The notes below the pieces were generated by a model. It was not told where the DNA came from and did no database searches. It saw only the letters and a list, made by a program, of their open reading frames with translations. This document shows positions 11,294 to 55,012 of a stretch of 64,000 bases of DNA, in pieces; position 1 is the first letter of the stretch, and each line of letters opens with the position of its first letter. Made by a program: the position numbers and the translations under genes. The stretch is taken from the NCBI GenBank assembly GCA_021513695.1, contig CP084166.1, positions 2,016,001 to 2,080,000 of the forward strand. Direction: 5' to 3'. Origin of the DNA: Candidatus Heimdallarchaeum aukensis (GTDB taxonomy: Archaea; Asgardarchaeota; Heimdallarchaeia; Heimdallarchaeales; Heimdallarchaeaceae).

Positions 11294-14200
11294 ATGGAGA
11301 AAATAAAGATAAAGAAAAAATTAACAATTTATTCAATTTTAATAATATTAATATTCTCTAATTTAAGTGGATTGAATTTTAAATTTTTGCAAGCAGAAAA
11401 TGGAGATCAAAGTCCTCCATCTATACTCAGAGTAACACAGTTTCCTGAAGTTCCTACCCAATTCGATGGAGTGGTAGTCTATGTAGAAGTGGAAGACGAA
11501 ACAGGGTTCAGTTCTATATATTTGATGTACGAAAGGAATAATAACTTAACATCCATACCAATGAAGTATTTACCCAATTATTATGGGAATGGAACATGTT
11601 TTTACGCTTCTCTTCCTTCTTTTTCTGCAGGAACTAAAATAACTTATTTTATCGAAGTGACTGATTCGAGTGAGAATCAGAATATTGCACACTCACTAAA
11701 ATATGATTATGTGGTGGTGAGTGACGGAATACCAAAAATACAGTTATTAAACGAACCAAAATTTCTGTATTTAGGAGATGAATATAAATTCCAGTTTACA
11801 ATTTATGATGAGGATAATATTTCTCTTCAAGATACAGGGATTGATCCACCTTTATTATATTACAGAACAGAAAGAGTAGAAGGAACACAACAAGTAGTTT
11901 ATAATTCCACAACAGGGGTATTTGAAAGCGTTTTACCTTCTGTGAATCTACTAGATGGAGAAATGAGTGAAGGAGAAAATATAGAGGTGTGGGTAGGAGC
12001 TTATGATAAAAGTCCTGCACACCAGTATGGGGAGAGCAAACATTTGCAGTTACCTGTCATTAACGAGAAACCTTACATTTATGGCGTAGATAGGTATCCA
12101 TATATTCCTTTGTATAATGAAAGTTTCAATTTAACCACAACAATCTATTATAGAGAAAATATAGGTATGAATATCACGCAAGTATCAGCAACTATAAACC
12201 GATATGATGAGGTTACACAAAAAATTACAAAACAAAGTTATATTTTAACCCAAAGTGAATATTCAAAATTTGTATTTACAGGAATAATAGAATCGATTGG
12301 GTATATAGACAATATAGAATTGAAAATAAATTGTAAGTACACTTCAGATTACCAAATAGAAGAAGCAGAAGTAGAAAAACAAGAAAAAAGTTTTAGAGTA
12401 AGAGATTGCGAAGCGCCAACAATATTAGAAAGTGGATTTAGCAACGGGGTATCAACATTAAAAGAAGGAGAAGAAGTAAAAATCTATGCTAATGTACTTG
12501 ATCGTTTGAATACAAAAGATGTCACTGCAATAATTACTGAAGAGTATAAATCAGGATTGCAACTTATTCGTTCATCAAAGGAATATTTCCAGAAAATGGG
12601 TTATTATGGAGATGACGGGATAAGTTTTATTCAACAGATGAGTATTGATCAGAGTATAAGTGGAGATTTTTATTTTGATGGATTAGTTCTAAAAGAAGAA
12701 TATGTTAGTGCAGTGAGAAAAGAAGCAGCAAGTGAAACATTAGTTATTTACGCGGTAGAAGGAAAAAATGAATTATTTATCAAGATTATCAACCCAGAAG
12801 GGTTTGTTCCTTTAAGTTATAATCAGTTGGTTATACAAGCAAAAGCTATAGGACAAGATATTCTTTTAGCAGGAGTATACACTGATTTAGGAGAAACAGT
12901 TGTTTGGAATGAAACAGTAGGAGAGTATGTTTACGATAATGTACTGCCTATAGACAAGGTTTTTACTATAGATGAATACGGAACAGCTTGTTTATACAAT
13001 CTTCAAAATATGGACGATATTACAAATGCGATATGGATAAAATTCGTTCCTGCTGAAGGAGGAAATTTTAGTTCATCTGATGGTTTAAGTATTGATAATA
13101 TTAGATTGTTTAGTATAAATACTTTAAATGGCGAGAGAATAGACTCTTATCATCAAGAAATAAATCATGATTTTGTTGAATACTATGGCTATTATCAAGC
13201 TAAAAAGGTTGATCAATTAATAACTTTCTATATCCAAGCGAGCGACGGAATAAATATCCAAACCCAAAATAATGAGGAAACAATAATAGTAACTGATGGT
13301 AGACCTCCAACATTTGCCATCAAACAAATTTCTGGAGTGGATATAGGTGATATTGAAATCAACTTTAGCATGGCTATCACTGATTATTCTATAATAGATC
13401 CAACTGATGCAGTAAATGTTCGTTTTCATTACAAGATTAACGGATTAGAAGAAATAAGTGCGAACTTAACAGTTGAGAATAACTGGGACGATAAAGGAAA
13501 AGTGTGGGTGTATAGGCTTGACACTACAACAAATTTAAATTTCAACGATATGTGGAAATATTGGTTCAGTGCAGAAGATCCTTGTGGTAATCGTGGAGAA
13601 AGTAAACATTACTCTTTTGTTGTAGAAGAAAATAGTGCACCTACAATATCTTTAACTTGTCAGACCGTTACATATAATGGAGAAGAAAAAACAGTTGTTG
13701 ATCCTGCAGGGGCAGAAATAGGAATATCTGGAGAATATTTAGACATAAACATGGATATAACAGAGAATGAAGGAGGAAGTGGAATAAAACTTATCCAGCT
13801 ATATTGGTATACTTCTTCTCATGAATCAAATTGCTGGAGTTCGGAAGTATATAGTTTTATGTCTAGCTATTCTATCACTAATTTAACTGTAGCAGAAAAA
13901 ATGATACATAATTTCGATAAAGTAGGTATACTTTATTATTATGCACAAGTAATTGATCATGCAGGAAACATTTATCAAACACCAGAATATCAAGTACAGC
14001 TAATAGATAATGTAAATCCTATAATAAAAATCAACTCTGAATATAATAGTCCAAATGGGTTGTATAATGTCGACAATTCGTATGGTGATATAAGCTATAA
14101 TGAAGATGCATATATCACTTTAGAAATAGAAGATGCATCTACTATAACTAACCTAATTTTGGAGGCAGAAACATCTCAAGGTACCTTTGTAGGAGAAGTG

Positions 14201-29900: not shown

Positions 29901-32900
29901 TGTAAGGTTTGAGAACCCTCGATATGTTAGTGGAGAATATAATTGGGCTAACATAGCAAATGAAATTTATGAATATGATACTGCTTTATATAACATAGAT
30001 TATGCTTTAGATAATAGTTTATACAAAATCCCACAAAGAACAATAGGTTTTGGAGTCAATTATCCTTTTGTGGGGATAAGTGACGTTTCTATTACTCCTC
30101 TTAACTCTATTCAGACAACTGATCTGGATGAGGATGGAGAAGAAGATTTCTCAATTATCAACGGAGACGTAGCAACGGATGGAGAAAATGTTATAGTTAA
30201 ACCTGGTAGTGCAATAACCTCTTTAGATCTGACAAATGATTTGGATATAGCTATTAAATATAAAGACATAATATCTTCTTGTAGGGGTTATTATGATAAC
30301 ACTTTTCTAGACTACTCTTTCGAAGTTGGGTTACAAGATTTGCATAACCCTAATCTTAAATATTATTTTTATATGAAAAATAGCTATCCATATAACCAAT
30401 ATTTTGAGTATGTAAATTCAGGACAGATTGATAATATCGTTCCTTTTACAGAAGACGATTCTTTACCAAGTTTAGATTCAGAAATAACTCAACCACTTAT
30501 GGGAACATATGTGGGGATAAAAGGTTACGCTCAGAGTTCGTCAGACTATTCATTAATAACAGACACACTTTCTTCTACTTTCAAACGTATATTTCAACCC
30601 AAGAATTCGATTTTATATGATTATTTAAATATAAAATATGATGTTACCACTAAAATATTGACTTTTATACTCTGGTCGGAAAAATACGGTAATAAGCAAT
30701 CCTATGAAATAAGCTATAACCTTTCGGAAACAGGAGAATTAGGAACGAATGATTTGACAAATTATACCTTATATTTTAAGACAGAGAACGCTTACTTGTT
30801 TATAGATAAGATTTACACTCGAACCTTTATGCCTGTAGAGGATACTAATTCTGAACGCTATTACAGAGGAGCAGGAAAACTAGGGGATTATTATCTTTAC
30901 TCTCCTGTTAATCATGGGTTAGAATTACAAAATCAAGTTAAACTTAACTATGAAGATTATAATCTTAATTCTTTTCCTTCCACTGAATTTTATTTCATAC
31001 CTACTTCAGAGTCCAGTTTCTCCTTAGATTTATTTGGAATAAAGAGTGATGATACACTCGAGAATTTTCTTAAGTTGGAAATAAATGGAAAAGAGTGTAA
31101 ACTTTCATTAGATTCTGGAGACTCATGGAATTCTCTCAATAATACAGAAATAGAGAATATGTTTGATGTGGTGAATAGTTATACTTGGAACAGTTTATCT
31201 ATTCATCGTGGGAGTGAAGAAGACCAGCTGATTATAACTCTGAATAATCAAGATTATCCTTTCGTTTTTCATATTGATACCGAGGAATATTATAAGTACA
31301 AGTTCACTTTAACTCATAAGCGTTCAAGAACTATAATAGACAATTTATCTTTCCTTTCTCTCTATGAGGAATTTGAAAATGAAAGAAAATTGTTAGACGA
31401 TGAGTGGGAAAAAGATATTTCTCGAGGATTTTACAGACAGATACAGGTGACAAAAGCTCAATCCCAACTAATTATTTATGGTGCATCGATTATAGAAGGA
31501 GAAACAGAAGTTACAGTGACCTTCAATGATGACCCCACTACTACTGTCAGTCAAATTTGGAAACAATCTTCTATAGGATTGAAAATGGACTATTATTCTT
31601 ATCTTATACCTTCTTCTGTCGATATGTCTTTGCCAGTTAAAGTTTCTCTTTCTGTTAGTAATATGGCTATAATCAATTGGTTAAGTATTGAACCGATGAA
31701 AGATATTGAGTCTATACTTTATCTTTCTAACAATAATAAGTATATAGACCAAGTCTATAGTCCAATGGAGTATCTTTCTGGTTCAGAACTTGTCTATTCT
31801 TCCACCTATGAGCAACCTCATGCTCTTGAAGTCGGAGGAACAACACAAGTAAAGTTCAAGTATAATTATTCTCCTGAAGATCTAGATGTCGCTCCTAACG
31901 TGGTTTTTGAAGGATTTATAAAAGGACAAGGTAAAATCTCTTTCTCTTTTCAAGTTAAACTTCCAGACAAATTTACTAGTTTGAATGTGAATTTCATAGG
32001 TTTAGTAGGTGTAGGAGAGAGTACAGAGCAGTATATTGCTACAATCAGCAGAGAAGAAAAAACGATTACTTATTCCGCTATTCTAAGTTCAGCAGAGGAG
32101 CAAGAACAGTGGAAATATTTCTATATTAGCCTTTATCAGCTTGCGAGACATATTCCTAAAGAATTACTTGTAGATAATTATTCAAATGGAAATAAAGAGG
32201 TTGATCTATTAGATGAAAATTACCCTGTTTCTGGTATAATTTCTGATGCAAAAATGGTCGTTAATTATGAAGGTTCATATGTGGAAAAAATCATCCAATT
32301 AGAAAAAGGAGCAAATCAAAATCTATACATTTCTGACTTGAAATCTACAATTACTAACATCCATAGCGCATATCCTTACGAAAATGCTTTATCTTCTTTG
32401 CCTGAGGAAATAAAATGGAAAAAATATGATGTTCCATTTGATGGGTATATTCCTCTTGATAATGTCTATCTTGATGATTTTGACGGTAGTTCGTATTATA
32501 TCTACGATGTAGTGGTTTATGTTGATGCTTCCACTTATTCTAAAGTACATTTAACAGTTGAAACTGAGGGATCTTTTGTTCTTTCTAACCGCTACTCTAT
32601 AATATTACAAAAGATGGGTTTTTCAAACGAAGTTGTTTCTACAGTCTTTAGCGCACAACAAGGATATACTCCCTTGTATCTTCACGTTGTTTTTCCAAAA
32701 ACAGCTTTTAATCAGAATATACGCATTCAATACATCTCCAATGGAGGAGTGGCTATAAGTGCTGAAAACAATAGAGAAGGAGATGCCATATCAGAGTGGT
32801 TGATCTCTACTCCTTTCTATTCGGAAAAAAATGAGGACACCGTTGATTATCTTAATTTTATTTCACAAGTTACACCTATGGAAGGAGAGCGATTCGAAAA

Positions 32901-35900
32901 AAGAGTAGTAGATTCAGAAGGATTTACCCACACAGAAACAATAGAATTTTCTGAATTCACTTTTCCTGGATTTTGTCCTATCTTAGACTTTGTTCCTCAT
33001 GCTGTTCCTTCAGGTTATTCTGTTATTCTCACTACTACGCTCGATTTCGCCAAAAGTTTGAACACTTCCTTAGTTCTACTTCTAAACAAAGAAAGTGGCA
33101 TAACAATACAATCCTTACTTTGGGATGAGACTCCACTTCTTTACATCAATGAAGGAGTATTTAACGAAATTGACTCCGATTTGGAAAATGGTATGATTAC
33201 TATACCTTTGAATAGTGAAGGGTTAACTGTCAACAGTCTCTTTTCTCCTAAAGAAAACAACCCTAATGAGTATGGTTTCATAGAAAACGACCCTGATTAT
33301 AACTTTCATTTTTCATCTTCTGACCCTTATAGTATAAAAACATCCTCTGTTAACCCTGATTCTGTTATTTTGAACAACAAAGGCATTCACAGAATAGTTA
33401 TCCAATTAACCTTTCCTTCTCCTTATAATACAGATTTTGGAATATATTTGGAAAATGTAGATGATAGCGTGCGAACTGTTTTATCTCCCTCAGATAAAGC
33501 AATAGACTTTCATGCAATCGCACAGAAGAACTTTATTCAATTTGAAAACGATCTTCATCAACCTCAAACTCTTGCTCAATTAGAGAAAAACGAGAATACT
33601 TTATTTAAATCACGATATTTCAAAGATGACTATGGTCAATACCATTCCTATAGAATTTATAGTCTTGGCTTTTCTGATGAATACACCTTAGATAAAGGAA
33701 AGAAATGGAAAATATATGATGGTGATACTGATGATTCTAACGATGTTATCTATGAAAGTACAGCTCACTACAATTGGAAACATGTAATAGGAAAGATGAA
33801 TTTTGCAATTGTTATAGATGAAGGAACTCCACAAGTTTTGCAATTGCCTTTTAATTTTCTAGTAGGTTACATGGTCTTTTGTGATTGGCTAGATACAAAT
33901 GGAGATGGATTAGAAGATACATGTGCTCCTTATATAGGTCTAGCAGACCCCTTAGATGCTAGTTCTACTTACGATGATGTAAAAAAAGGTGTAGTGTATA
34001 ATACAGAGGAAGAGAAGAAAATAAGTTATGATGTTACTGATGAACAACAAGCAGAACTCAAGAATCTTACTGTACGCCAATCGTTGATATCTTCTCTTTC
34101 AACTACAGTAATTACAAAAACAGAAGAAACCATCCCCTTATCCTACACTTCTGACGAAATAGCTGCTATTCAAAACAATGGATTAACTCTTGATCGTTAT
34201 CTTCATTCTTTAATAGAAAATGACTATTTGACCTACTCTGAAGATATTGCAAGAGTAGAAATAACTATTAGTTCTTCAAATAATAAAGAAATTGACCTTG
34301 CTTATGATTATGATAAAGAAATATTGTTCACCCACAGTGTTGATAATGCTACAGGAGAAGAAGAAAAAATAGTCTATGATTTTAGATATGACTGTTTTTC
34401 TGTCCTCACTCCTGATGCTCTTGCTAACGACAACTACAGAGTAGATTTTTATACTTTTAATAATAAACTAAGTCTCTATGATACCGATTTGTATAAACTT
34501 AAAGAAACGCCTAATTCTTACGGATTGTTAGATGATCCACAAACTCTTTCACCTATGGTAGTCTTAGAAAATTATAACTATGAAATAAAAGAAACAGTTA
34601 ATAGTCTTGATTCAAAAGATGAAGAAATTTTAAACAATAGTCCAACAACAATTGTAGACGCTTTTGTTCAAGGATTAAGTCTTTCTCAACTAAGCGTGGA
34701 AATGTATGATGCTGAAATAGAGATGGATTATTACAGTTTAGATCTCTTCTATTCTGTTTTCTTTAATGAATATTTGACTCTACAACAATTCTTCTATTCT
34801 CAAGAAACATTAAATAACAACCAGAATTATCAGTATTATCCTACTGGGACAATCCAATTTGCTAAATGGATTAGTTCAATACTTAACTCCTATATAATCC
34901 AACAATCAGACAAATTATTTGATGAATACCAAAACCGTACTTCTCGATATGATTCAGAGAAAAAAGCTATAGCTGCTATGTCCTTTTTGTTAGACCTTAT
35001 TATTCCTTATCGCGGATTCAAAACCTACGGTTCGGAACCTAAACCAGAAGAGACTCATCACCCACGTTTCTCTAGTTATGTGGACTTCAAATATAGTCTA
35101 GTTATGTTTTGGGGATTAATCTTAGGTAATAGTGCAGGCTGTGGAATACCTAAAAATTCTGTCTCTCTGTTTAGCGAGAGTGAGAGAACTGGAAAACTCT
35201 TGATGATTGACGAATTATGGGATAAAGCTATTAAACACTGGAACTTGGCAGATAAAAGTAGAATAGATGATCCTAGCGAATATTTGCCCTATACTGACCG
35301 AGCTGTAGTAGACAAAATACTGTTTGACGCCAGAGTAAGAGGAGATGAAGCTATGATCGACTGGATAACAAATGAAGATTATAGTGCTGAGGCTTATTAC
35401 ATGCAACCCTATGGAGTGGATTATTCGATCTATTACTGGTTGAAGGCTTTTACTATTCAACAAGGATATGACCCTTATGCTATCAAGGTTTACACCATTG
35501 AAGAGATGAATAGTCAAGAGAGAGAAGATTTTGACGAAAATTATTTTGTTATAGGCGTTCCTGTTTCCACAATCGAAGACCAATATTTAGAATATAACTG
35601 GTTTGTAAGTCTAGATAAAGAAACACGTGTGCCCACTTCTGCTACATCACAACTAATAGACTTTATCCCTCTTGTATTCGGTCAAAGTTCTAATCCACAT
35701 ATAAGAACAATGATGAAAATAATTAAAAGATTAGGAAATGCAGCAAAAGGAGAAAATTTCGGTTATAATACTTTTAGCATGAGTGAATTCAGCTTAATCG
35801 TTACTTTAGAATTTTTAGTTAATCTTGTAGATATAGGCGCTTTACTTATTGATATCAGAGATGCCTATATAGGAGCTACTCCTTTCATACGCAAAATGTC

Positions 35901-38900
35901 GCTCATGCAAATACCAATGGATATACTAGATTTGTTCACTCCAGGACCTTTTTCTCTCGTAGGAAATACAATGAATAAAATTTTCAAATCTATAGTCGGA
36001 GACGTTACCTTAGAAGTAAATAGGATAACAAAAACATTTAATTTACTAGATATTGTACAAAATTTCCCAAAAGGAGAGTGGAAAAGCATTGCTCGAGCAG
36101 CAGGAAAATCAGAACTAATGATCTGGATAGTTGGAGCAGCACAAGTGACTTACCGTTTCTCTAAACTAGCCAATCAATTCTATCAATGGTTCTTCTTCCT
36201 CCCGCAAAAGATTTTCATGAGTAGTTTACAAATAACTTTAGGGTCATTCATGATATTTGCCTCTAAAATGATTTATGCCATCAGAAGAATGGATATCGAA
36301 GAAGCAATGTTGTTAAACATTAAAGCGCAAAAATACTTCAACCAAGGACTAGATGATACCGCTAAAATGACAAGAGCTATATTAAGCCATCCAAAAATGC
36401 TAGCAAGATTTGGAACTGAAGAACTTATAGAACGAGCAAATATAGTAGCAAAATATTACATGAACATTATTATAAAGAAAGTAATGGAATTGGAAGCAAC
36501 ATCAAAAGCAATACTAGAATCGGTTGAAAAGTCACGCTTCTATGTTATGATGGCCTTAAGATATGCTACACATATGTACATGAACACCCCAGGAGGAGTA
36601 GGTATACACTTCTCTCCCAATTTAATTGATAATGAGAAAGAAACTGAAGGAATAAGACATTTCAACACCGTGGATAATATTTTGCCAAAATTAGAATATG
36701 AAATAGCAATGTATTACTGGAAGCATGAATATCTAGCGGATGATGAAAAAATAAAAGAGTATAATAGTGAAAAATTCAATTTCAGAGATGTAGAAAGCGC
36801 AAAAATACATATAACTATAGCTTTTTCATCTATTGCTGCAATACATTCGACACCAGAATCATTCCAAAGATATAAAGAACTACTAGAATACACAGATAAG
36901 AGGTTAATAGAAATAAAAAATGAAAAGGGTGAAAATCTAGAGTATACACCTATATGGTGGATTTTACATTTGCCTGTTGATCCCTCGCTACAAAAACTAG
37001 CCCTTAGCCACATATTTGATGAATCACCTGCAGTTTCACTGCTTCTAAAAGTTCTAATGGTAGAGAAAGGTCTTAACGAAGACTTATTAGAAAATAATAT
37101 CGACGATATAGATGAATACAATAAAGAAGTTCATTCCATTTTAGATCAAATTTTATCTTCTTCCCCCCTAAATATAAGTCATAAAGTCTTTATCCTTGAA
37201 AAAGATGAAAAAGGGAATCATATCTGGAAAGCAAGAATTTTAGATTTGTTAGGGCAATCTGAAGGATCATTAACTAAGTTAAGGACACGAGATGAATATA
37301 TTAAGTGGTCTGTAATCGGTAGAACAGGAATAGACTTGTTAGGCCTTTTCGGAAGTGAAGAATTAAAAAACTATTTTCCCAAAGGAGTAAGAAATGCTTT
37401 AACTGCTAGAAATGATCAAACTTCAATAATCTATGAGCTTATATGTATGGGATTATTAGATTTTAGATTTTATACAGATGATAAAAATGTAAAGGATCAA
37501 TTAAAAATTGATTTTCCAGAGCATGACTTTGAAAAAGAACCCAGTATTAGCATTGCTGAATTAGCTAAAAAATATAGTAAATATGATATTCTAGAATTAT
37601 TTGAAAAAAGTAATTTTATTAGACAGACTCTTATAAGTAATGGAGTAGACGGATTAATACACAGTACAAAAATAGGAAAGTCTCTTTATTCTGTTAAAGA
37701 TTCAACGGGAATATTCAATAAAGCTAATTCAAAAAATATTTTATACTCTGTAGCAGCTGAAAATGCATATATAGGTCATGGAAGTGTTATTTATTATTAT
37801 GATAAGCTACAAGGTGATATTATCACGGATATAGATAATAAATTGATATACAATGCTAGATATTATGATCCTACAGCTTCAAAATCACCTAAACCTTTTG
37901 TTCCAGGCGATGCAATATTACTCTATGATTCCAATGTAAATCGTTATCTGTTTTTAAGAACTAATTTTCCTGAGGACACTATGCTAAATCAAAATCAGAA
38001 ACTAGATGAATATAGTGGTTTTAAAAGAGAAATTAACGTGTTTTGGTTTCAAATAAACAAAGATACAAATGAGGGAGAGATAGTTTATGATACATTAGAA
38101 CACTATTGTTATGAAAATGAAAAACTGAAGGAAGGAATAAAAGTTGTTGGAACGGAGGATATTTTGCAAGAGGTAGATAAGTTTCATCCAAAGAGAAATA
38201 AAATAAGAAGTAGTCAACCTATAATATCAATAGAAGCAAAGCAAAATGGAGGGAACATAGATTACGTTGTCTCAATGGATGAACAACTTCCTTTATTTAG
38301 GTTTATAGGTGGAGATTATTCAACTGCAACAGAAAAAGACATCAATTTTGCTAGTTTTCTTTACCCAAGAAAACATTCCAACGATATTGTTTTCGGATTG
38401 CAAGATGATAACTTAGATTTTATCGATGAAAAGGGTTTATGGCCTATCCATATGGGTTTAAGCCCAGGAAGGTTTACATACAACGTGCAAAACATATATT
38501 TAGATGAGATTAATTCAGCAAAAGCGTTATTGGATAAATTAGATGAATTAGATAACTTGCCTGTAGTAGAAGTTAAAACAAAGGATAATGAATATATAAC
38601 TCGACCAGCAACAGTTCAGGAAGTAAATCAACAGAGAGTATATGAGTTAATTAGATGGTACTCTACAAGTCAAGTGTATACTTATTATGTGTCTAGTTTA
38701 AATAAAGAAAATAAAGCATTTTTGTGCAGAGCATATCTAGATGATTGGAATGCAGCTAAATCGTTAGGTGAAATCATAGAAATAGCAGAAGATACTAATG
38801 GAAATCTATACCAGAAATATGGTTATGAGAATAAACAAGAATATCTAACCTTTAGAATGAATGTTATTCAAACAATAATAAACGAACAAGAACAGTTCTA

Positions 38901-40641
38901 TAAATACAAGTTTAAAGATGAAAGTGATTTAACAAAAGAAGAAAAGTTGGTAATATTTCTAAAAGAACAAAAAGAATTTTTTGAAAGATTACATAATGAC
39001 GCTGCTAAAATAGAGGCATTTCAAGAACCATTTTTTTCAAACTTGAGACTAGACATTAAAGAAGTCGATACATATAATGTACTTAATTATCGCAGTTTAG
39101 AATCGTCAATTGAATTACTTTTATTAAATAGATTTGACTCGTATAATAAGATACACTTATTCGAAGGAGATGTACCTTTTTCAAGAAACCCGATGAAATT
39201 CGGTTTCGATAATGTAATTGTCCAAATAGGTACGAGAGCATTCATAAACAAGGTCAAAGAAGAGGGAATATTAGATTTTGATGAAGATAAAAATTCAGTA
39301 TTAGAACTAGCTAATAAAGTATTTAAAAGAAAAACAGTTATAAAACCATTAATCCGCGGACCAATAAAAGCAAAATCAATTGCTTTTCTCCAACATGAAG
39401 AAACAATGGCTAAACTGAACAATTATAAAACATTGCAAAAAATATCCAAAGAAGAAATAAGGCTCTGGAAACTTTACAACAAAAAATTAGATAATGAAAA
39501 AGGCCATTTGACTGTAGAGCAACTATACGAAATAGAAGAAGAGTTCAACAATATAAATGGAAAAAATATAGTAGGAAAACAAGGAGCAGGGATGACAGTA
39601 ATAGAAGATGGAAACACATATGTTGTAAAAATATACAGTCTCATCAGTGATTTAAGATATAATAACAAAATTCATGCAGGTAGTGAGGCAAATAAGTATG
39701 ATATTGCAGAAAGAGTGTTGGGACTAGCACAACACATAAAGTACGTAGCAAAGGAAGGAAGAATATACATTAATTATGCAATGGCAAACATTCTTTATCT
39801 GATAAAAACACTAACAAACGGTAAAATGGAAATAGATGACGTCCAGAATCTAAGGGACCTGGGAAATCCAAAGGAATTAGAAGCTATACTAGTAAATAAT
39901 TTAGGGGAAGAAAGAACAAAAGAAATACTAAATATTTTAGAAGAAGTAACCATAAGAACGAAAAGAAAAATAAAACAAGGAAAAGATTATTCCATAGAAA
40001 ATATAGAAAAAGGACAATCGTTGGCTTTTCAAATTGGATATGTGGATCTGAAAAATATAACCCCTGAGGTAAGAGGAAAATTAAGGCTACAAGGGATGTT
40101 ATTGAGAGAAATCTTGATGTTACTGGATATAATATATGGACTATATTATACAGGAAGAAATTATATGAAACGCCTAGATATTAATTTAGCGCAAACAACA
40201 GTAATTTTCGAAAAAACAACGGAAGAAGGCAAAACAATACTAAAATTAAAAGACGTAAAAACAAGCACAGAACAAGAAATGAATGGAGAGTTCATATCAT
40301 CACTGAACGATTTCGACCAAAAAACAGCATCAATAATAGAAAAACTGGCTGAAACTAAATATTCATCAGTATTTGGACCAGAATTTATGACTAGAGAACA
40401 ATTAAGAAAATTGGTAGATGAAATAATAGAAGAATATGAGAGTATACTAAAATTGAAAATAAGAAAATTCAATGAAATATTAACTCAAGACGATATGGAA
40501 GTAGAACTAGTAGCAAAGAAATTCAAAATAGAAGAATTGCTAAAAATGCTAACACCTAAAGGATTATGGTCAATGTACGAGCAAAAGAAAAGAAATAATG
40601 AAAAAAGAGGACAAACAAAAATAACAGACTTCCTAATTTAA
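23968..40641 (+). CDS. giant membrane protein (5557 aa): N-terminal signal-anchor, about 3600-aa ectodomain, cluster of hydrophobic helices, and an about 1400-aa Lys/Glu-rich cytoplasmic tail
   Basis: The start codon is 3 nt after the stop of the preceding giant gene, with GGAGG 8 nt upstream. N-terminal TM segment (LVITGVALFISVIVILQSF). Hydrophobic segments near aa 3660-4100 (KYSLVMFWGLILGNSAG, LMIWIVGAAQV, QITLGSFMIFASKMIYAI). The C-terminal third has a charged, helical-looking composition. Confidence 0.85.
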   Translation: MQKIKSKMNTFLGKLNKRSLVITGVALFISVIVILQSFSIALYPQSSDDDSYTFFYSDFSDKEEWKGVYRLSWGSIIVDSNFNAMSKKIDLYWYGMQQLFLEVKGIDSLKLDSSSAIQVIDADTSRILYELRGSQLSSFNVSVDLSAYVYEDTSALYINIIGSIKIIDYIRIFTPKLYYHNFLNDGKTFPNAYHEFNQLYIDYLAYTEEVTYETPVIKVPEGNNVNLTFAFNLVPSLTSNYSMFAHIYADIYGLGGFGEVEQRIELGYSYTNMSFGADYVSLIDKEITLLGNYYVRFYLNFDCFETNEEDIQIKLIAFFIQPHNNVEEQSEYVDPALYIRKSPNAYISEQVVEGRVFNALTVDRQGYIATYKISHMDTIFYDKLDPSTIEENYTIGNPDTLVYDFDSSKNLRLNSSGYLYSSESIGSDFSVSTSFNLNSLASNRIFAGIGIYGTHSYEFAVGNMTLYEETYVDEETTTVKVKEVYQAYLHVYKDNLLIRSYALNQTFGEGQVISLSLSSKFGYKAYSVQINYEEIVISLSEIIAIGGKPGIFAKIPQPSPDNFVSFYYLSASGITEYSPRRLLIYSKTQQYVTVVLKATRINPLSFSSEKVVIDEKKLSQNKEGILYFSYIPKPFEYIHLEVYCTNPDEELTSSFSILAMKFSGIHEYNTIIPSYDYYDISDSVYFEKRNLISEDLSDNFIASYDAIVEERYSLLEIGAEAQDSLPDTQIDIYTRKLNSGLPFTFQGTVYWTEHESGSFFSHVLYLDLSPGNYEIRLERPLIFTSKLNISYLLLRPLTSYANAVTDSVGFTNPLSWEKDFTTDKIDAFNGIDQFIEESYYSLVHPSCYMKDDGNGNYEQYTDWTPSTDDTQIWSVEDNLASFVGGVKLDIPDVSTGPEGYPYLRFVARTYSNCTIDLKLTLTYSDGSTNEYYYSVSQEPKVYFFNFDYTDSLKILSGIEFFTNYILYNDKDESVIVSDIHLYRFTNIEVKLEDQSYLDDSGFDTSDYSGDNFSVAPFLSDYYGLLDIDLNYIPSNERVKVWTDNDAEGLKQYYYNYNNHYLLPSTVTVPINDWRVNKGASVGIYSTPLTSLNLNFMISMDIENRKTFNEDMTIELFEYKFKPNTDAYATSLPYSYYKLKFYLYGSIEMQNEEGEMEGGYLYYRLFAYDGVEETELTPTYDMLSDNTDFLQAISTNTLDFPNMLRITENYEKGITHLIYNTNEESELRAVFPVNFEEAYTISIHFGQDQEIKREYADADSKDEVFDTPFFVGVSSFDTFLDLYGGSGEKATLLFADVTIPSSMFPSLFIQTSEAINSTTELTWGTDYSINWSPEPTFYVNSYEPSRNEETGYKPLAHHINLFENRYLLLEDLKTIFEEIDVTPYLVNENYGDFIYLPKYYSATLSTLQDVYVTTYDLSFEGTGNFQLIGNTILKSYIFDYNDEKNKNWKNEFIDKTVSSLKFISTYEKDTLPKTYLSCLDYLSYEYYAKNKKREYSFTDGFTNYEDWTTVDFSLFERVKEPSLRSSPLGLVIDENSIDFTSENMDSIYDYFDPTDELEDLFSFSGKTIYYLPSYYMKGGNDQPGHSLWDRVIAGEAFQGFNPSSSPYYQNQLYLYNNWMYDLQSQIIQKEGYNIYDQNELQIYNIYDEIPGDHRDFSCMLPDYLRFKPVYYSTSLPKNFIWSFDINVDSWSLGNLAENYVKFFDKEEGRYSFYISIPIILPSHGNKPYYQDLAQAPNVLRLFIYYDSGTEYHDSDTETGFFKLDPHYSIYLGRSIIGIWKASESVSLHFEIAVEEKEIDESYAIYQEGVNGGPQITAYYDYNLQMWINNDNMYWDLLKLPMWMLTIAYPYKDKDDNKAIPNNYQYDLMYNQLFNTQNSENGYINPQYSEAFNTYYKGLYGDKEPNGFQPDARLFFDTGSLTEHTYHWLQYQRSLVSDKYYSLSLSEYGIDPSNPSLYDWDYHYYSRDNYAGMVRSDLADVRFENPRYVSGEYNWANIANEIYEYDTALYNIDYALDNSLYKIPQRTIGFGVNYPFVGISDVSITPLNSIQTTDLDEDGEEDFSIINGDVATDGENVIVKPGSAITSLDLTNDLDIAIKYKDIISSCRGYYDNTFLDYSFEVGLQDLHNPNLKYYFYMKNSYPYNQYFEYVNSGQIDNIVPFTEDDSLPSLDSEITQPLMGTYVGIKGYAQSSSDYSLITDTLSSTFKRIFQPKNSILYDYLNIKYDVTTKILTFILWSEKYGNKQSYEISYNLSETGELGTNDLTNYTLYFKTENAYLFIDKIYTRTFMPVEDTNSERYYRGAGKLGDYYLYSPVNHGLELQNQVKLNYEDYNLNSFPSTEFYFIPTSESSFSLDLFGIKSDDTLENFLKLEINGKECKLSLDSGDSWNSLNNTEIENMFDVVNSYTWNSLSIHRGSEEDQLIITLNNQDYPFVFHIDTEEYYKYKFTLTHKRSRTIIDNLSFLSLYEEFENERKLLDDEWEKDISRGFYRQIQVTKAQSQLIIYGASIIEGETEVTVTFNDDPTTTVSQIWKQSSIGLKMDYYSYLIPSSVDMSLPVKVSLSVSNMAIINWLSIEPMKDIESILYLSNNNKYIDQVYSPMEYLSGSELVYSSTYEQPHALEVGGTTQVKFKYNYSPEDLDVAPNVVFEGFIKGQGKISFSFQVKLPDKFTSLNVNFIGLVGVGESTEQYIATISREEKTITYSAILSSAEEQEQWKYFYISLYQLARHIPKELLVDNYSNGNKEVDLLDENYPVSGIISDAKMVVNYEGSYVEKIIQLEKGANQNLYISDLKSTITNIHSAYPYENALSSLPEEIKWKKYDVPFDGYIPLDNVYLDDFDGSSYYIYDVVVYVDASTYSKVHLTVETEGSFVLSNRYSIILQKMGFSNEVVSTVFSAQQGYTPLYLHVVFPKTAFNQNIRIQYISNGGVAISAENNREGDAISEWLISTPFYSEKNEDTVDYLNFISQVTPMEGERFEKRVVDSEGFTHTETIEFSEFTFPGFCPILDFVPHAVPSGYSVILTTTLDFAKSLNTSLVLLLNKESGITIQSLLWDETPLLYINEGVFNEIDSDLENGMITIPLNSEGLTVNSLFSPKENNPNEYGFIENDPDYNFHFSSSDPYSIKTSSVNPDSVILNNKGIHRIVIQLTFPSPYNTDFGIYLENVDDSVRTVLSPSDKAIDFHAIAQKNFIQFENDLHQPQTLAQLEKNENTLFKSRYFKDDYGQYHSYRIYSLGFSDEYTLDKGKKWKIYDGDTDDSNDVIYESTAHYNWKHVIGKMNFAIVIDEGTPQVLQLPFNFLVGYMVFCDWLDTNGDGLEDTCAPYIGLADPLDASSTYDDVKKGVVYNTEEEKKISYDVTDEQQAELKNLTVRQSLISSLSTTVITKTEETIPLSYTSDEIAAIQNNGLTLDRYLHSLIENDYLTYSEDIARVEITISSSNNKEIDLAYDYDKEILFTHSVDNATGEEEKIVYDFRYDCFSVLTPDALANDNYRVDFYTFNNKLSLYDTDLYKLKETPNSYGLLDDPQTLSPMVVLENYNYEIKETVNSLDSKDEEILNNSPTTIVDAFVQGLSLSQLSVEMYDAEIEMDYYSLDLFYSVFFNEYLTLQQFFYSQETLNNNQNYQYYPTGTIQFAKWISSILNSYIIQQSDKLFDEYQNRTSRYDSEKKAIAAMSFLLDLIIPYRGFKTYGSEPKPEETHHPRFSSYVDFKYSLVMFWGLILGNSAGCGIPKNSVSLFSESERTGKLLMIDELWDKAIKHWNLADKSRIDDPSEYLPYTDRAVVDKILFDARVRGDEAMIDWITNEDYSAEAYYMQPYGVDYSIYYWLKAFTIQQGYDPYAIKVYTIEEMNSQEREDFDENYFVIGVPVSTIEDQYLEYNWFVSLDKETRVPTSATSQLIDFIPLVFGQSSNPHIRTMMKIIKRLGNAAKGENFGYNTFSMSEFSLIVTLEFLVNLVDIGALLIDIRDAYIGATPFIRKMSLMQIPMDILDLFTPGPFSLVGNTMNKIFKSIVGDVTLEVNRITKTFNLLDIVQNFPKGEWKSIARAAGKSELMIWIVGAAQVTYRFSKLANQFYQWFFFLPQKIFMSSLQITLGSFMIFASKMIYAIRRMDIEEAMLLNIKAQKYFNQGLDDTAKMTRAILSHPKMLARFGTEELIERANIVAKYYMNIIIKKVMELEATSKAILESVEKSRFYVMMALRYATHMYMNTPGGVGIHFSPNLIDNEKETEGIRHFNTVDNILPKLEYEIAMYYWKHEYLADDEKIKEYNSEKFNFRDVESAKIHITIAFSSIAAIHSTPESFQRYKELLEYTDKRLIEIKNEKGENLEYTPIWWILHLPVDPSLQKLALSHIFDESPAVSLLLKVLMVEKGLNEDLLENNIDDIDEYNKEVHSILDQILSSSPLNISHKVFILEKDEKGNHIWKARILDLLGQSEGSLTKLRTRDEYIKWSVIGRTGIDLLGLFGSEELKNYFPKGVRNALTARNDQTSIIYELICMGLLDFRFYTDDKNVKDQLKIDFPEHDFEKEPSISIAELAKKYSKYDILELFEKSNFIRQTLISNGVDGLIHSTKIGKSLYSVKDSTGIFNKANSKNILYSVAAENAYIGHGSVIYYYDKLQGDIITDIDNKLIYNARYYDPTASKSPKPFVPGDAILLYDSNVNRYLFLRTNFPEDTMLNQNQKLDEYSGFKREINVFWFQINKDTNEGEIVYDTLEHYCYENEKLKEGIKVVGTEDILQEVDKFHPKRNKIRSSQPIISIEAKQNGGNIDYVVSMDEQLPLFRFIGGDYSTATEKDINFASFLYPRKHSNDIVFGLQDDNLDFIDEKGLWPIHMGLSPGRFTYNVQNIYLDEINSAKALLDKLDELDNLPVVEVKTKDNEYITRPATVQEVNQQRVYELIRWYSTSQVYTYYVSSLNKENKAFLCRAYLDDWNAAKSLGEIIEIAEDTNGNLYQKYGYENKQEYLTFRMNVIQTIINEQEQFYKYKFKDESDLTKEEKLVIFLKEQKEFFERLHNDAAKIEAFQEPFFSNLRLDIKEVDTYNVLNYRSLESSIELLLLNRFDSYNKIHLFEGDVPFSRNPMKFGFDNVIVQIGTRAFINKVKEEGILDFDEDKNSVLELANKVFKRKTVIKPLIRGPIKAKSIAFLQHEETMAKLNNYKTLQKISKEEIRLWKLYNKKLDNEKGHLTVEQLYEIEEEFNNINGKNIVGKQGAGMTVIEDGNTYVVKIYSLISDLRYNNKIHAGSEANKYDIAERVLGLAQHIKYVAKEGRIYINYAMANILYLIKTLTNGKMEIDDVQNLRDLGNPKELEAILVNNLGEERTKEILNILEEVTIRTKRKIKQGKDYSIENIEKGQSLAFQIGYVDLKNITPEVRGKLRLQGMLLREILMLLDIIYGLYYTGRNYMKRLDINLAQTTVIFEKTTEEGKTILKLKDVKTSTEQEMNGEFISSLNDFDQKTASIIEKLAETKYSSVFGPEFMTREQLRKLVDEIIEEYESILKLKIRKFNEILTQDDMEVELVAKKFKIEELLKMLTPKGLWSMYEQKKRNNEKRGQTKITDFLI

Positions 40642-40664: not shown

Positions 40665-40768
40665 TGGTGCGTCAACCGGGAATTGAACCCGGGCCGTCGA
40701 ATCTCTTCTTGAGGCTTCTAGACGCCATATAATGGAAGTCCGACGTACTACCACTATACTATTGACGC
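40665..40768 (-). tRNA. tRNA-Gly (anticodon TCC) with an intron of about 30 nt
   Basis: Minus-strand read: GCGTCAA TA GTAT AGTGGTA GTAC G TCGGA CTTCCAT [intron] TTCGA CGGC CCGGG TTCAATT CCCGG TTGACGC A CCA. Confidence 0.7.
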
Positions 40769-51658: not shown

Positions 51659-51797
51659 TGGTGCCCCGACCGGGAACCTCAAAAAAAATGCCTCAACATT
51701 TTTCTTTTTGAACCCGGGTCTGCGGATATTCCTGCCACATCCGCGAACTTTAGCATGTGAAAGTCCGCAATGATTGGCCGAGCTACACCATCGGGGC
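51659..51797 (-). tRNA. tRNA-Glu (anticodon TTC) with two introns (anticodon loop, about 30 nt; T-loop, about 33 nt)
   Basis: Minus-strand read: GCCCCGA ... T GCGGA CTTTCAC [ATGCTAAAGTTCGCGGATGTGGCAGGAATA] TCCGC AGAC CCGGG TTCAA[AAAGAAAAATGTTGAGGCATTTTTTTTGAGG]TT CCCGG TCGGGGC A CCA. The acceptor and T stems are perfect. The T-loop is 41 nt long unless an intron is removed from it. Confidence 0.65.
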
Positions 51798-51999
51798 ATA
51801 GAGTTTTTGTCTTGTTGAAATGATAGAATTAAATTGATTTTTAATATTTTTGTTTGTCGTGTCCTCTTATTAATAATGATTTTCTTTATATTCTGTTATT
51901 ATCTTACAGAGATAAATTTAAAAAATAAATGTTAACTCGTTTCTTAATCCATATAGAAAAACTGCTCGTTTCCTACTTTGTTCATTTGCTTAAAATTTC

Positions 52000-52084
52000 G
52001 CGGGGATTGCCGAGCGGTCAAAGGCGCTGGACTTAGGATCCAGTCCTTAGTGGTTCGAGAGTTCGAATCTCTCTCCCCGCACCA
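52000..52084 (+). tRNA. tRNA-Leu (anticodon TAG), class II with a long variable arm
   Basis: GCGGGGA TT GCC GAGCGGTCAAA GGC G CTGGA CTTAGGA TCCAG [long variable arm] GAGAG TTCGAAT CTCTC TCCCCGC A CCA. Confidence 0.85.
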
Positions 52085-52095
52085 TTTCTTCTTTT
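52057..52095 (+). repeat. attL-like 39-bp direct repeat (3' end of tRNA-Leu plus 11 nt downstream)
   Basis: gagagttcgaatctctctccccgcaccatttcttctttt is repeated identically at 54886..54924. Confidence 0.85.
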
Positions 52096-52127
52096 ATCTT
52101 TATATATTTCCTTTTCCTTTTTTCTTT

Positions 52128-54881
52128 ATGGTTGCTTTTTCTCCTACTTTTTCTGTTATCGATTCTTTCTCTTTTCTTCACGACCCTCAATTTGTTTTTT
52201 TACTTCAGACTTTTATTGATTCTTCCCCTGACTTTTTTTCGTTTCTTTCTCTTCTTTCTTCCTCTTCTCCCTCTTCTCTTTCTTCTTTTGTAAGGGACAT
52301 TTTTTTACTTATTTCTTTTGATGATCCTTTTTCTCTTTCTTCTTCCTCTTTTCATTTTTTTGATTCTCATTTTAATTGGAAATCTTTTCTTTCCTTTTTC
52401 CTTGATTCTTTTTCTTCCCGTAAATTTTCTCTTTGCAATTTTTCTTTATTTTATGCTCATTTTTCTTTTTTGCATTTTTCTATTCCTAATTTTTTATCTG
52501 ATTTTGCATTCTTTTTTTTATCTGATTTAGATTTTAATTTTTTATCTTCTTCCTTTTTCAGTTCTTTTTTCTCTTTTGAATCTTTTTATGATTTTTTCTT
52601 TTCTTATTTTGATTCTTTTTTACCTTCCTATCGTCTCCTTATGCGTCATCGTTTTAATTCTTCTCCTAACCATTTTTTTCCTCCTTTTCTTCCATTCCTT
52701 CGTTCTGAAGAGGTTAGCTCTTATTTTAAGTCCTTTCTGTATATTTGTGGCTTTGATAAATCTGTTTTCGGTTTTGGTTCTTCTCGTGCTAAGGTTGATC
52801 CTCGTCAATTTGCTGAGTCTTTTCAAACTTCTTGGATTAAATTGCACTTTCATTTAGACAAAATGCGTTTTCCTTTTACTCTTTCTTCTACTCGTGTTCT
52901 TTCTCTTTATCATCCTGGTCGTTATGTTTCTTCTGTTAATCCAAGTAATGGTTTTGACGATCTAATTGTTTTTTCTTCCTCCTCTTCCATTCCATCCTCT
53001 CTTTCCTCTTCTCCTTCTTCTCTTTCTTCCTTTTCTTCTCCCGTTTCTCCCTGCTTTACTATTTGTGTTATTGAGCAAAAAATGAACCATTTAGACGTTA
53101 AGCGTTTAGATAGTCCTTCTTCCTCTTCCGATTTTACGCGTTATCTCTCTTACCTTGCTAAAACCCACTTAAATCCCTTTATTCTTCTTTTACAAGCGTT
53201 TCATTATCCTGAAAAAGATAGACTTAAATTGTCCTCTCTATTGTATGATCGCTCTTTAACTTATTCTAACTCTGTTGGATTAGACTTTTTACGTAAAATC
53301 ACGAATGGTGATTTTCTATCTTCTCTTAAACTAATTGAACCTTCTTTAGATGATCAAACTATCAATAATATTCTTCGGGGTTCTATTATCCAGCACCAGC
53401 TTATTTCTTTGATTAAGTCTGGTTTTTGTTTTAAATTGGCTTTTGTTGATGGTTATTATACCGTTAAAAAGAGGTATCCTGGTGACCTGGTCTCTTCTGT
53501 TATATGTTATTATAATTGTTTAAATGGTTCTTGCGTTGAAATCCATTTTCCTTCGTCGCTATTTGAAATAAGAATAGATTCTAGGGGTCATTTTCTTGTA
53601 CCTCAGTACTCTGAATCTCAGATTTCTTCATATGCAAAGACAGAAAACGAGCTTATGGCTTATCAGGAACTCAACAATCTATTTAACACTTTACGGAGCG
53701 ATATGATTTTTAATGTAAATATTTTGTCTCTCCCTCCTTTTGAAATTGTAAAAAAAGTTAATTTATATCAAAAAAAGATTCTCTTTTTTTTACTTAATTC
53801 TAGACGAATTGCTGATTTAAGTATCTTTAACGATGGTTTTGTTAAATCTTATTTGGAAATTTTTACTTTACCAAAAACAGCTCATCGGATCAAGAGATAC
53901 TTATCCTATATACACGATTCACTTTCAATTTTTCCCTATTCGTTTTATCAGCAGTGGAATGCTCCTTTTGGCGATAGACTAAAAAACATGTTCTCTGGTT
54001 CTTTTAGTCGTGATACCCTTCTTTGTAAGCGTTTTAAAGAAAAGCTTCTTGAGTTTATTTTATCCTCTGATTATGATTTTTCCGAAATGCCTTTAGAATT
54101 TATTGAAACTAAGTTACGTCATTCACCTGATATTCAAATTTTTTTAGATTGCTATTTTAGTCAGTTTGCTCTTTATCCTGACGGTAATTTTTTACGGTTT
54201 AAACATAATAAAATTTCTTTGAAAGCTCTTGCTTTTTGGGATGAGACCAACAATCAATGGTTTTCGCTTAACAAGAAGCGTTTTTACATTTTATTGAACT
54301 TTGAAGATATTTTAGCTAATATAAGTAAGGAAGTGTCTTTTAAAGTAACAAAAAATCTTTTGCTTTTTCCTATTAAATTTAGTTTAAATAAACGCACAGG
54401 GCAGTTATCAGCTCTATTTAATACTGATTTTACTAACACTGAAGTAAACAGAATTTGGGTTGCATATCTTAAAAAATTGAAAGGAATGGATCTTTCCTTT
54501 GAGATTTTGTCCTCTTTTTCTTATGGTCAACGAAATAAGCGGAGTGGAATTGATTTATTCTATAACTGTAACCAAAAAAAGCTTTCAATATTGTTGGCAA
54601 TATTATCAGAAACTATTAAGTTGTGGAGTTTGGTTAAAGAACTTGTCCTTAACGTTGTTTATAAAAAATTAGATTCTGAAATGGATAAAATTATCTTATC
54701 TACCAAAGGAGATAAAATTGTTCTCAATGGCAAGCAATACAAAATGGTCTTACTCAATTACAATGAAAGTAATTCAAGGGTTAGGTGGTCGTTTAAACAC
54801 TACCTATTTCCTGTTGAAGGAACAATTATTGATGATTTTGTTAAAAAATGTTATTCTATTTATACTGATTTATTTTCTTAG
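52128..54881 (+). CDS. element-encoded hypothetical protein; start uncertain (the ORF-track start at 51978 runs through tRNA-Leu and is an artefact)
   Basis: A long frame stays open to 54881. The first roughly 320 codons are Ser/Phe/Leu-rich low complexity from the polypyrimidine tract, where all three plus frames lack stops. The C-terminal roughly 600 aa (from about MNHLDVKRLD at 53084) have normal protein-like composition. No catalytic motifs were recognised. Confidence 0.4.
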   Translation: MVAFSPTFSVIDSFSFLHDPQFVFLLQTFIDSSPDFFSFLSLLSSSSPSSLSSFVRDIFLLISFDDPFSLSSSSFHFFDSHFNWKSFLSFFLDSFSSRKFSLCNFSLFYAHFSFLHFSIPNFLSDFAFFFLSDLDFNFLSSSFFSSFFSFESFYDFFFSYFDSFLPSYRLLMRHRFNSSPNHFFPPFLPFLRSEEVSSYFKSFLYICGFDKSVFGFGSSRAKVDPRQFAESFQTSWIKLHFHLDKMRFPFTLSSTRVLSLYHPGRYVSSVNPSNGFDDLIVFSSSSSIPSSLSSSPSSLSSFSSPVSPCFTICVIEQKMNHLDVKRLDSPSSSSDFTRYLSYLAKTHLNPFILLLQAFHYPEKDRLKLSSLLYDRSLTYSNSVGLDFLRKITNGDFLSSLKLIEPSLDDQTINNILRGSIIQHQLISLIKSGFCFKLAFVDGYYTVKKRYPGDLVSSVICYYNCLNGSCVEIHFPSSLFEIRIDSRGHFLVPQYSESQISSYAKTENELMAYQELNNLFNTLRSDMIFNVNILSLPPFEIVKKVNLYQKKILFFLLNSRRIADLSIFNDGFVKSYLEIFTLPKTAHRIKRYLSYIHDSLSIFPYSFYQQWNAPFGDRLKNMFSGSFSRDTLLCKRFKEKLLEFILSSDYDFSEMPLEFIETKLRHSPDIQIFLDCYFSQFALYPDGNFLRFKHNKISLKALAFWDETNNQWFSLNKKRFYILLNFEDILANISKEVSFKVTKNLLLFPIKFSLNKRTGQLSALFNTDFTNTEVNRIWVAYLKKLKGMDLSFEILSSFSYGQRNKRSGIDLFYNCNQKKLSILLAILSETIKLWSLVKELVLNVVYKKLDSEMDKIILSTKGDKIVLNGKQYKMVLLNYNESNSRVRWSFKHYLFPVEGTIIDDFVKKCYSIYTDLFS

Positions 54882-54885
54882 GCTT

Positions 54886-54924
54886 GGAGAGTTCGAATCT
54901 CTCTCCCCGCACCATTTCTTCTTT
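54886..54924 (+). repeat. attR-like 39-bp direct repeat (copy of the tRNA-Leu 3' end)
   Basis: Identical to 52057..52095. The flanking sequence diverges immediately outside the repeat. Confidence 0.85.
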
Positions 54925-54962
54925 TCTTTTGTTTTCTTTTTCGTTTTGTTTCGTTTTGTTTA

Positions 54963-55011
54963 TTTTTTGATAGTGATAGTGATAGTTACACCTTTTTTGA
55001 TAGTGATAGAC
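54963..55011. repeat. (GATAGT)n repeat tract, inverted copy of the 8996..9047 tract
   Basis: ttttttgatagtgatagtgatagtt...ttttttgatagtgatagac. Lies just outside attR, at a convergent gene end. Confidence 0.75.
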
Positions 55012-55012
55012 T

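Follow-up and report, generated by a model that had tools for sequence, protein, structure and literature searches.

A single-gene insertion between copies of a tRNA-Leu 3' end in Heimdallarchaeum, and relatives of its gene between other duplicated gene ends

We analysed a 64,000-nt stretch of the genome of Candidatus Heimdallarchaeum aukensis (contig CP084166.1 of assembly GCA_021513695.1, positions 2,016,001 to 2,080,000, forward strand), hereafter called the window; coordinates are positions in the window unless a contig is named. Within it, a tRNA-Leu gene is followed by a small element that consists of one long gene between two copies of the tRNA 3' end. The main features of the element are as follows.

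52000 to 52084, + strand: complete tRNA-Leu(UAG) gene with encoded CCA (ARAGORN; 59.1 bits with the Rfam tRNA model).
52057 to 52095, + strand: left direct repeat, similar to a left attachment site (attL), comprising the 28 nt of the tRNA 3' end and 11 nt downstream.
52099 to 52106, + strand: TTTATATA, a TATA-box-like motif 22 nt upstream of the ATG at 52128, read from the sequence.
52128 to 54881, + strand: the only gene of the element, 917 amino acids (aa) from ATG 52128, with stop codon TAG at 54879-54881.
52128 to 52640, + strand: pyrimidine-rich 5' part of this gene, encoding an N-terminal extension rich in Phe, Ser and Leu (27% F, 26% S).
54887 to 54925, + strand: right direct repeat, similar to a right attachment site (attR), a displaced tRNA 3' fragment that begins 5 nt past the stop codon of the gene.

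The two copies of the repeat, GAGAGTTCGAATCTCTCTCCCCGCACCATTTCTTCTTTT, are identical at 39 of 39 positions and are spaced 2830 bp apart. Hence, a first-pass annotation of the sequence was accurate in describing an exact duplication of the last 28 nt of tRNA-Leu(TAG) plus 11 nt; the copies occupy 52057-52095 and 54887-54925. Upstream of the repeat, a TT also matches in both copies, past one mismatch. A chance origin is excluded, because this is the sole direct repeat of at least 24 nt outside low-complexity sequence in the 64-kb window. The complete tRNA-Leu is rebuilt at the left junction, whereas the right copy holds just the last 28 nt of the tRNA and lacks its 5' two-thirds. Since this second copy is so short and directly follows the stop codon of the open reading frame (ORF), the structure is not a tandem duplication of the tRNA. 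From ATG 52128, the ORF leaves margins of 32 nt to the left repeat and 5 nt to the right repeat. The ORF list and the sequence revealed no second gene-sized space between the repeats, and no terminal inverted repeats were among the repeats found at the element. A repeat of the tRNA 3' end thus stands on either side of the insert, and one of the two junctions has an intact tRNA, which is the arrangement by which elements of tyrosine integrases are recognised.

The 28 nt of the tRNA 3' end were scanned against one genome per GTDB species. The sole match was the closed genome of H. endolithica PR6, where the orthologous locus holds two copies at a distance of 1,353 bp. A scan of JGI metagenomes with the same tRNA end returned unrelated tRNAs only. 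Look-ups through neighbouring proteins (contigs L004, L005, L006 and L019), with L015 reached through the element protein itself, added five more occupied loci as well as contigs whose sequence ends in the repeat or short of it. One contig from a more distant member of Heimdallarchaeaceae was rearranged and had no tRNA-Leu nearby. In total, a repeat-flanked insertion was present at the same tRNA in seven of the seven assemblies (the window, PR6, L004, L005, L006, L015 and L019). The tRNA-Leu(UAG) sequence is the same in PR6, L004, L015 and L019. The right repeat has changed from CCA to CTA in L004, L005, L006 and L019, while the left repeat, being part of the tRNA, has stayed intact; this is as expected for a non-functional remnant. 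The first-pass annotation had named two findings that would speak against integration, namely a tandem duplication of the tRNA and relatives with the same interior in the absence of the flanking repeat. No tandem tRNA is present, and the relatives that share the interior have the repeat at its flanks as well.

That no insertion took place, and that the repeat arose by chance, by an assembly artefact or by partial tandem duplication of the tRNA region, is very improbable. Besides the bare existence of the repeat, this explanation can draw on contig L022 (Logan SRR15988954), an independent aukensis-type assembly that ends at 11698 exactly inside the 39-bp repeat. De Bruijn graph assembly is expected to break at a repeat in this way, although a mixture of occupied and empty forms in the sample would also be compatible with the break. 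Against the explanation, a 39/39 match is not possible by chance in 64 kb, the second copy comes without the 5' two-thirds of the tRNA, and the same structure is seen in two closed genomes and several independent metagenome assemblies.

The interior of the element differs between assemblies. Variant A contains the full gene (the window and L015). Variant B (PR6, L004, L005 and L019) retains the equivalents of 52096-52832 and 54763-54886. Variant C (L006) is different upstream of the conserved last ~120 bp, as judged from the 165 bp of sequence available. Over the 5' part of the element, aukensis and PR6 are 96.1% identical, compared with 95.4% over 5.3 kb of flanking host DNA. Because the element has diverged about as much as the host DNA around it, the insertion predates the split between aukensis and endolithica and was inherited vertically.

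The sole database identity of the ORF is the hypothetical protein K9W45_09175 of Candidatus Heimdallarchaeum aukensis. GenBank places its start at ATG 52641, which gives 746 aa; the first in-frame ATG, at 52128, is likely the true start. The TTTATATA motif upstream of it is kept in PR6, L004, L015 and L019. In archaea, the TATA box of a leaderless message usually lies at about this distance of 22 nt, and the motif suggests a promoter carried by the element itself, for an mRNA with a short leader or none. An ORF start at 51978, inside the tRNA, as called with translation table 11, was rejected as an artefact of A-poor sequence. We also rejected a partitioned integrase of the SSV type that reads through the attachment (att) site, since the plus-strand frames are open there merely because the sequence is A-poor, and the homologues have no such N-terminal part.

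The first-pass annotation had described the interior as foreign in composition, with a T/C-rich and A-poor plus strand. This composition was confirmed and is strongest at 52096-52640, where 82% of the nucleotides are pyrimidines and 12% are A, the most extreme 500-nt stretch of the window. Over 52096-52832, the frame of the ORF contains no stops and the other two plus-strand frames contain 2 and 25. The pyrimidine-rich part carries an 18-nt in-frame indel relative to PR6, six of the nine substitutions relative to PR6 in its most T/C-rich stretch are at codon position 3, and the ORF frame across it is also open in L015. From these patterns, the pyrimidine-rich part codes for protein or did so until recently. 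We rejected a gene on the minus strand, in the complementary purine-rich sequence, because all three minus frames contain 8-16 stops. The Phe/Ser-rich N-terminus is confined to the Heimdallarchaeum copies; other members of the protein family described below lack the extension.

Between the window and L015 (GCA_054383115.1), the ratio of nonsynonymous to synonymous substitution rates (dN/dS) was 0.26 for the whole gene and 0.19 for codons 331-700, and all indels were in-frame. Neighbouring host genes gave dN/dS values of 0.12-0.23 in comparison with PR6. In view of the low dN/dS and the exclusively in-frame indels, the gene is intact and under purifying selection rather than decayed, contrary to the earlier suggestion that the element might be a decayed one. 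The genes that surround the element are archaeal, with intron-bearing tRNAs among them.

An exhaustive HMMER search of 1.8 billion representative proteins identified seven relatives of the element protein, and those with a named source all come from metagenome-assembled genomes of Heimdallarchaeota or Heimdallarchaeaceae. The relatives align from about residue 200 onward over the whole protein, at 23-27% identity. The family is small, found only in Heimdallarchaeia, sporadic and often fragmented, with proteins of 725-917 aa. A further search with a family profile retrieved close relatives only, and low-complexity words dominated the matches.

For the ORF and six relatives, searches of Pfam, NCBIfam, PADLOC and PHROGs, and of PDB both by sequence and by profile, gave nothing credible. 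These library searches yielded no family, in line with the initial description of a single long ORF with no recognisable integrase, Rep or capsid. More specifically, neither the ORF nor its relatives had a Pfam, NCBIfam or PHROG match to a tyrosine recombinase, whole or split. A family-library scan found no transposase domain in the ORF, and profile scans found no homing nuclease domain in it (LAGLIDADG, HNH, GIY-YIG or other known types). No relatives were detected in IMG/VR, among the INPHARED/GenBank phages or among the PLSDB plasmids.

Conserved blocks of the family are AE.FQ..W.K.H, GFDD, (I/V/F)E.K, KQNQLISLIK, HQQW.APF and PDGNFW. The family also has a conserved N-terminal core, which is located in the window gene as follows.

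52812 to 53081, + strand: conserved N-terminal core with the pattern E...GFDD...(I/V/F)E-x-K, from the alignment.
52815 to 52817, 52950 to 52961 and 53070 to 53081, + strand: the core residues Glu, GFDD and IEQK, respectively.

This core is kept in the window protein, in the relatives P0005, P0009 and P0016, and in the N-terminal fragment on contig L016. The combination of GFDD...(I/V/F)E-x-K with the upstream Glu occurs in all members that have the N-terminal region. Its predicted secondary structure is alpha-beta-beta-beta-alpha, with a predicted local distance difference test score (pLDDT) below 50 there; both structure models are poor in this region. The pattern resembles the motif of PD-(D/E)xK nucleases at the level of the sequence motif only, and no profile or fold match to a PD-(D/E)xK member was significant. 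A candidate HUH motif (HFH in 'KLHFHLD') was discarded, as it is not conserved in the relatives.

Some family copies are broken. L017 carries two separate C-terminal fragments on one contig (2173-2580 and 3974-5131), and in L016 (3-2844) the gene is split into ORFs of 442 aa and 497 aa. The copies of L016 and L017 both adjoin a conserved neighbour of 333-335 aa and a small GTPase gene.

Two further members of the family lie between duplicated gene ends. In L013/L014, a 906-aa member is situated between the genes for the beta and alpha subunits of fumarate hydratase. Here, the last ~49 codons of the beta gene (about 147 bp) occur in two copies, of which one completes the upstream gene and the other is a remnant preceded by a stop that abuts the start of the alpha gene. 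The two copies align gaplessly at 69% identity, with 11, 9 and 29 differences at the first, second and third codon positions. The proportion of synonymous differences (pS) is 0.90 against a proportion of nonsynonymous differences (pN) of 0.21, from which it follows that the copies evolved apart as working genes and that one was imported with the insert.

In L020/L021, a 725-aa member (ORF 697-2874) lies between 65-bp direct repeats at 564-628 and 2908-2971 that are identical at 61 of 65 positions. The left repeat is the 3' end of a conserved non-coding region that spans ~300 nt and follows a PAC2 gene. This region is structured. It is ~70% identical between L020 (300-640) and L009 (5585-5950), has a terminator-like hairpin, and adopts a predicted fold that a 16-bp helix closes; nine of its pairs are compensatory between L009 and L020. 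No Rfam family matched it.

Together with the tRNA-Leu locus, target 3' ends are thus duplicated in all three bracketed cases, with one copy of the element per locus and repeats of 39-147 bp. In each of them the ORF runs in the same direction as the target gene and comes after the rebuilt target 3' end. The family gene is alone between the repeats, with margins of 5-110 nt, which leave no room for another gene. The well-sampled locus of P0005 (L009-L012) is not bracketed in this way: neither DNA nor protein comparisons revealed a duplication at its flanks.

Hence, the unit at tRNA-Leu is an inserted, horizontally derived element, and its gene family recurs as a solo passenger at unrelated targets. 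The interpretation of the repeat as an att-like signature of integration, first proposed from the sequence of this locus, is supported by the repeat itself, the rebuilt tRNA, the bracketed homologues, the sporadic distribution of the family and a matching spacer from a clustered regularly interspaced short palindromic repeats (CRISPR) array described below. Because three diverged proteins are found at three targets, each alone between repeats, we infer that the protein determines and performs the insertion, as the enzyme of integration in a process of site-specific recombination. We assign a probability of roughly 45% to the full reading, in which the element is an old and fixed member of a group of single-gene integrative elements whose protein itself supplies the insertion function.

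According to this reading, site-specific recombination would have brought a foreign unit of 2,830 bp into the 3' end of tRNA-Leu(UAG) in a common ancestor of H. aukensis and H. endolithica, from which the unit has been inherited vertically. The left junction would have rebuilt the tRNA, while the displaced 28-nt end and 11 nt would have stayed behind as the right repeat. By bringing a replacement copy of the target 3' end, the element would keep the host gene functional. The protein would supply the target-specific cutting or joining. Its gene, with a promoter-like TATA box of its own, is held intact by selection in aukensis-type lineages. The host, in turn, handles the gene as foreign DNA: in the endolithica-type lineage, its middle has been deleted, and a mini-CRISPR array with a spacer that matches the deleted part takes its place.

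Three observations qualify this reading. All seven assemblies of the locus are occupied, so that no empty site was found among them. No excised circular form was found in assembled sequence. Moreover, all seven assemblies hold the element at one and the same site, and its divergence is like that of the flanking host genes; it is therefore old, fixed and probably no longer moving at tRNA-Leu.

The principal alternative is a non-autonomous mini-element, in which a conventional tyrosine integrase encoded elsewhere, by a virus or another integrated element, made the att sites and the ORF is cargo of a unit that moves, or once moved, in trans. Repeats of tRNA 3' ends are the usual product of tyrosine integrases (Williams 2002, cited in PMC8813620), and the 39-bp repeat fits this product. 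The ORF has no recombinase signature and, provided that it is not itself a recombinase, the locus is an att-flanked unit that lacks an integrase, as a mini-element of this type should be. Heimdallarchaeum genomes contain many integrases and other tRNA-linked elements (PMC8813620), and Asgard archaea offer a documented precedent in an integrase-less mini-element of 2,644 bp that circularises (PMC11529989). A helper, however, did not come to light: the scanned ORFs of the window include no integrase, and the closed genome of PR6 has the 28-nt att core at this locus only, with no helper copy. Furthermore, three diverged members at three unrelated targets would need three helpers, each of which left just this gene. 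We regard mobilisation by a helper as a possible explanation, but not a probable one.

Alternatively, the element may be what is left of a larger provirus or plasmid at the tRNA that decayed and kept a single beneficial or addictive gene, for instance a defence or toxin-like nuclease. Such a history would suit a gene that is under purifying selection yet dispensable, as its loss in variant B illustrates. It would also suit an element that is old and fixed, and a locus that is variable, with at least three interior variants. The ORF, however, fills the space between the repeats almost exactly, as it does at the two other targets, and independent decay would not trim three insertions to the same single gene. 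PADLOC gave no match for the ORF. We regard a decayed remnant as unlikely.

The part of the gene that variant B lacks, and the protospacer within it, have the following positions.

52833 to 54762, + strand: part of the gene (1.93 kb) that is absent from variant B, which has ~437 bp with a mini-CRISPR array at its start instead, from alignments.
53384 to 53419, + strand: protospacer of spacer 1 in the arrays of PR6, L004 and L019 (BLAST E = 7e-9).

The mini-CRISPR array was located at 5770-5459 on the minus strand of L001 (PR6), at 9920-9610 in L004 and at 1122-1430 in L019. It comprises two identical 30-nt repeats, a third and a fourth repeat that deviate at 5 and 8 positions, respectively, and spacers of 36 and 35 nt. 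The two deviating repeats stand at the end where a leader would be presumed. With identical repeats of ~30 nt, unique spacers of similar length and a repeat akin to a known one, it has the characteristics of a CRISPR array. Read as its reverse complement, GTTAAAATTGGACTAAGATAGGATTGAAAT, the repeat agrees with that of Pyrococcus furiosus at 23 of 30 positions (sequence from PMC3737339; hand count), and 36 nt is the most frequent length of spacers in Heimdallarchaeum arrays (Wu et al. 2022, PMC8813620). The repeat itself is absent from the window and from IMG/VR and has no match among the Rfam CRISPR-DR families, and the 8-kb PR6 locus contains no cas genes. We considered whether the mini-array of PR6 is the orphan array C4 of Wu et al. 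and rejected this, because C4 has 18 spacers.

Spacer 1 differs from the window at 3 of 36 positions and from L015 at 2 of 36, whereas shuffled spacers had at least 10 mismatches. Its target encodes the most conserved motif of the family, IIQHQLISLIKS. In the canonical orientation of the repeat, the predicted CRISPR RNA is complementary to the mRNA of the gene, and the 5' flank on the protospacer strand is CCA. Spacer 2 had no match in the window or in IMG/VR. Because spacer 1 matches the gene, a CRISPR system has sampled the gene of the element as foreign. The genomes that carry spacer 1 are without the target part of the gene, and the array sits within the remnant of its own target gene, collinear with it. 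A published screen of Heimdallarchaeum spacers applied a cut-off of 95% identity (Wu et al. 2022, PMC8813620) and, owing to this cut-off, would miss the match of spacer 1.

In L019 (407-1270), a 1-nt deletion at the junction of gene and array puts the truncated gene in frame through repeat, spacer and repeat. In the resulting predicted protein of 287 aa (P0018), translation of the spacer gives the native motif, IIQHQLISLIKS, probably by coincidence, as the lengths of 30 and 36 nt are both divisible by three.

Archaeal viruses reportedly carry mini-CRISPR arrays, an observation attributed to Medvedeva in 2019, and CRISPR self-targeting is said to delete genomic islands, as ascribed to Vercoe in 2013. 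The array described here is similar in that an orphan array of two spacers has one that matches a competing or resident mobile element, with the target absent from the genome that bears the spacer. It differs in that the array of the sister genome lies inside the remnant of its own target gene. A joint reading that goes further seems doubtful to us. In this reading, the protein would be a new site-specific integrase or nuclease unrelated to the tyrosine, serine, DDE and HUH enzymes, and the array would be the trace of a deletion driven by CRISPR, with the array itself as the source of the repair. The element would then be the smallest self-sufficient integrative element known in archaea, made up of a protein, a short promoter and a replacement 3' end, with different lineages that home to the 3' end of a tRNA gene, of a structured RNA or of a protein-coding gene.

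The element shares features with several known systems. Like the tRNA elements of tyrosine integrases (SSV-type, pNOB8-type and phage-like islands), it is inserted at a tRNA 3' end with a repeat of tens of bp that rebuilds the tRNA. In contrast to them, it has no integrase gene, whole or partitioned, and consists of 2.8 kb with one gene of an unknown family. Phage 21 and e14 integrate into the 3' end of icd, where they bring a diverged copy of the target end and displace the original end. The fumarate hydratase case of L013 resembles them, as the insert brings its own diverged target 3' end. Phage 21 and e14, however, are full prophages with lambda-type integrases, whereas a single unknown gene is found here. 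Insertion sequences and DDE transposons, with their terminal inverted repeats, short target duplications and several copies per genome, differ from the elements described here, which have gene-end repeats of 39-147 bp instead of short duplications, one copy per locus and no transposase domain. Free-standing homing endonuclease genes are comparable as solitary selfish genes in or near conserved genes, with a sporadic distribution and, possibly, a nuclease motif in common. Yet homing copies a gene into an allelic site without duplication of the target, whereas 3' ends are duplicated here and there is no homing domain.

Cis-mobilisable elements such as mini-Yucahu-i are also small, have attachment repeats on both sides and carry no recombinase of a known type. 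Mini-Yucahu-i of Atabeyarchaeia is 2.6 kb long, lies inside its helper plasmid and has ParG and RuvB-like genes (PMC11529989). Here, by contrast, no helper was found, and the same gene family stands alone at three targets. The aloposons of Heimdallarchaeum, which are linked to tRNAs, span tens of kb and combine giant genes in tandem with a ParA-like module (Wu et al. 2022, PMC8813620). Our element has the same host genus and a tRNA linkage in common with them, and one aloposon lies in the same window (11294-40641). It shares neither the size of tens of kb, nor the tandem giant genes, nor the ParA-like module.

The repeat-flanked insertion at a tRNA is in itself a textbook signature. New are the integrase-less unit of one gene, from a family without known relatives, at three kinds of gene end, and the allele of the sister species, where a mini-CRISPR array has taken the place of its own target. 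The element is not described in the publication of these genomes (PMC8813620), and exact 17-mers of the gene are absent from its mobilome FASTA file. For the element to be new in kind, the protein would have to turn out to be the recombinase. If the protein indeed inserts the element, it would represent a new recombination or nuclease activity with built-in specificity for gene ends, of interest for the evolution of recombinases and perhaps useful as a tool. Among known archaea, Heimdallarchaeia are the nearest relatives of eukaryotes, and knowledge of their mobile DNA is scant. Even on a conservative reading, one tRNA displays, across closely related genomes, how a selfish gene became fixed and was removed by CRISPR.

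Several other features were noted in the vicinity. Just downstream of the right repeat (54970-55012), tandem GATAGT units vary in copy number between assemblies. A microsatellite of the TTGTCTTTTTG type occupies the spacer between the tRNAs upstream of tRNA-Leu (window ~51800-51815; L001 ~6800-6860; L004 10950-11051); PR6, L004 and L019 have an expanded version of it, the window a short one. The intron-bearing tRNA gene just upstream of tRNA-Leu (51660-51797, minus strand) has an extra insertion of 31 nt on the T-loop side in comparison with PR6 and L015. ARAGORN and Rfam missed this tRNA in the window, and the PR6 copy was found by Rfam. The insertion could be a second intron, or the gene could be disabled. 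Finally, the aloposon-like block of the window (8164-40768), of the type described by Wu et al. 2022, starts with a ParA/MinD-like gene (8164-8964), continues with tandem giant ORFs of 4,223 aa (11294-23965) and 5,557 aa (23968-40641), and ends at an intron-bearing tRNA on the minus strand (40668-40768).

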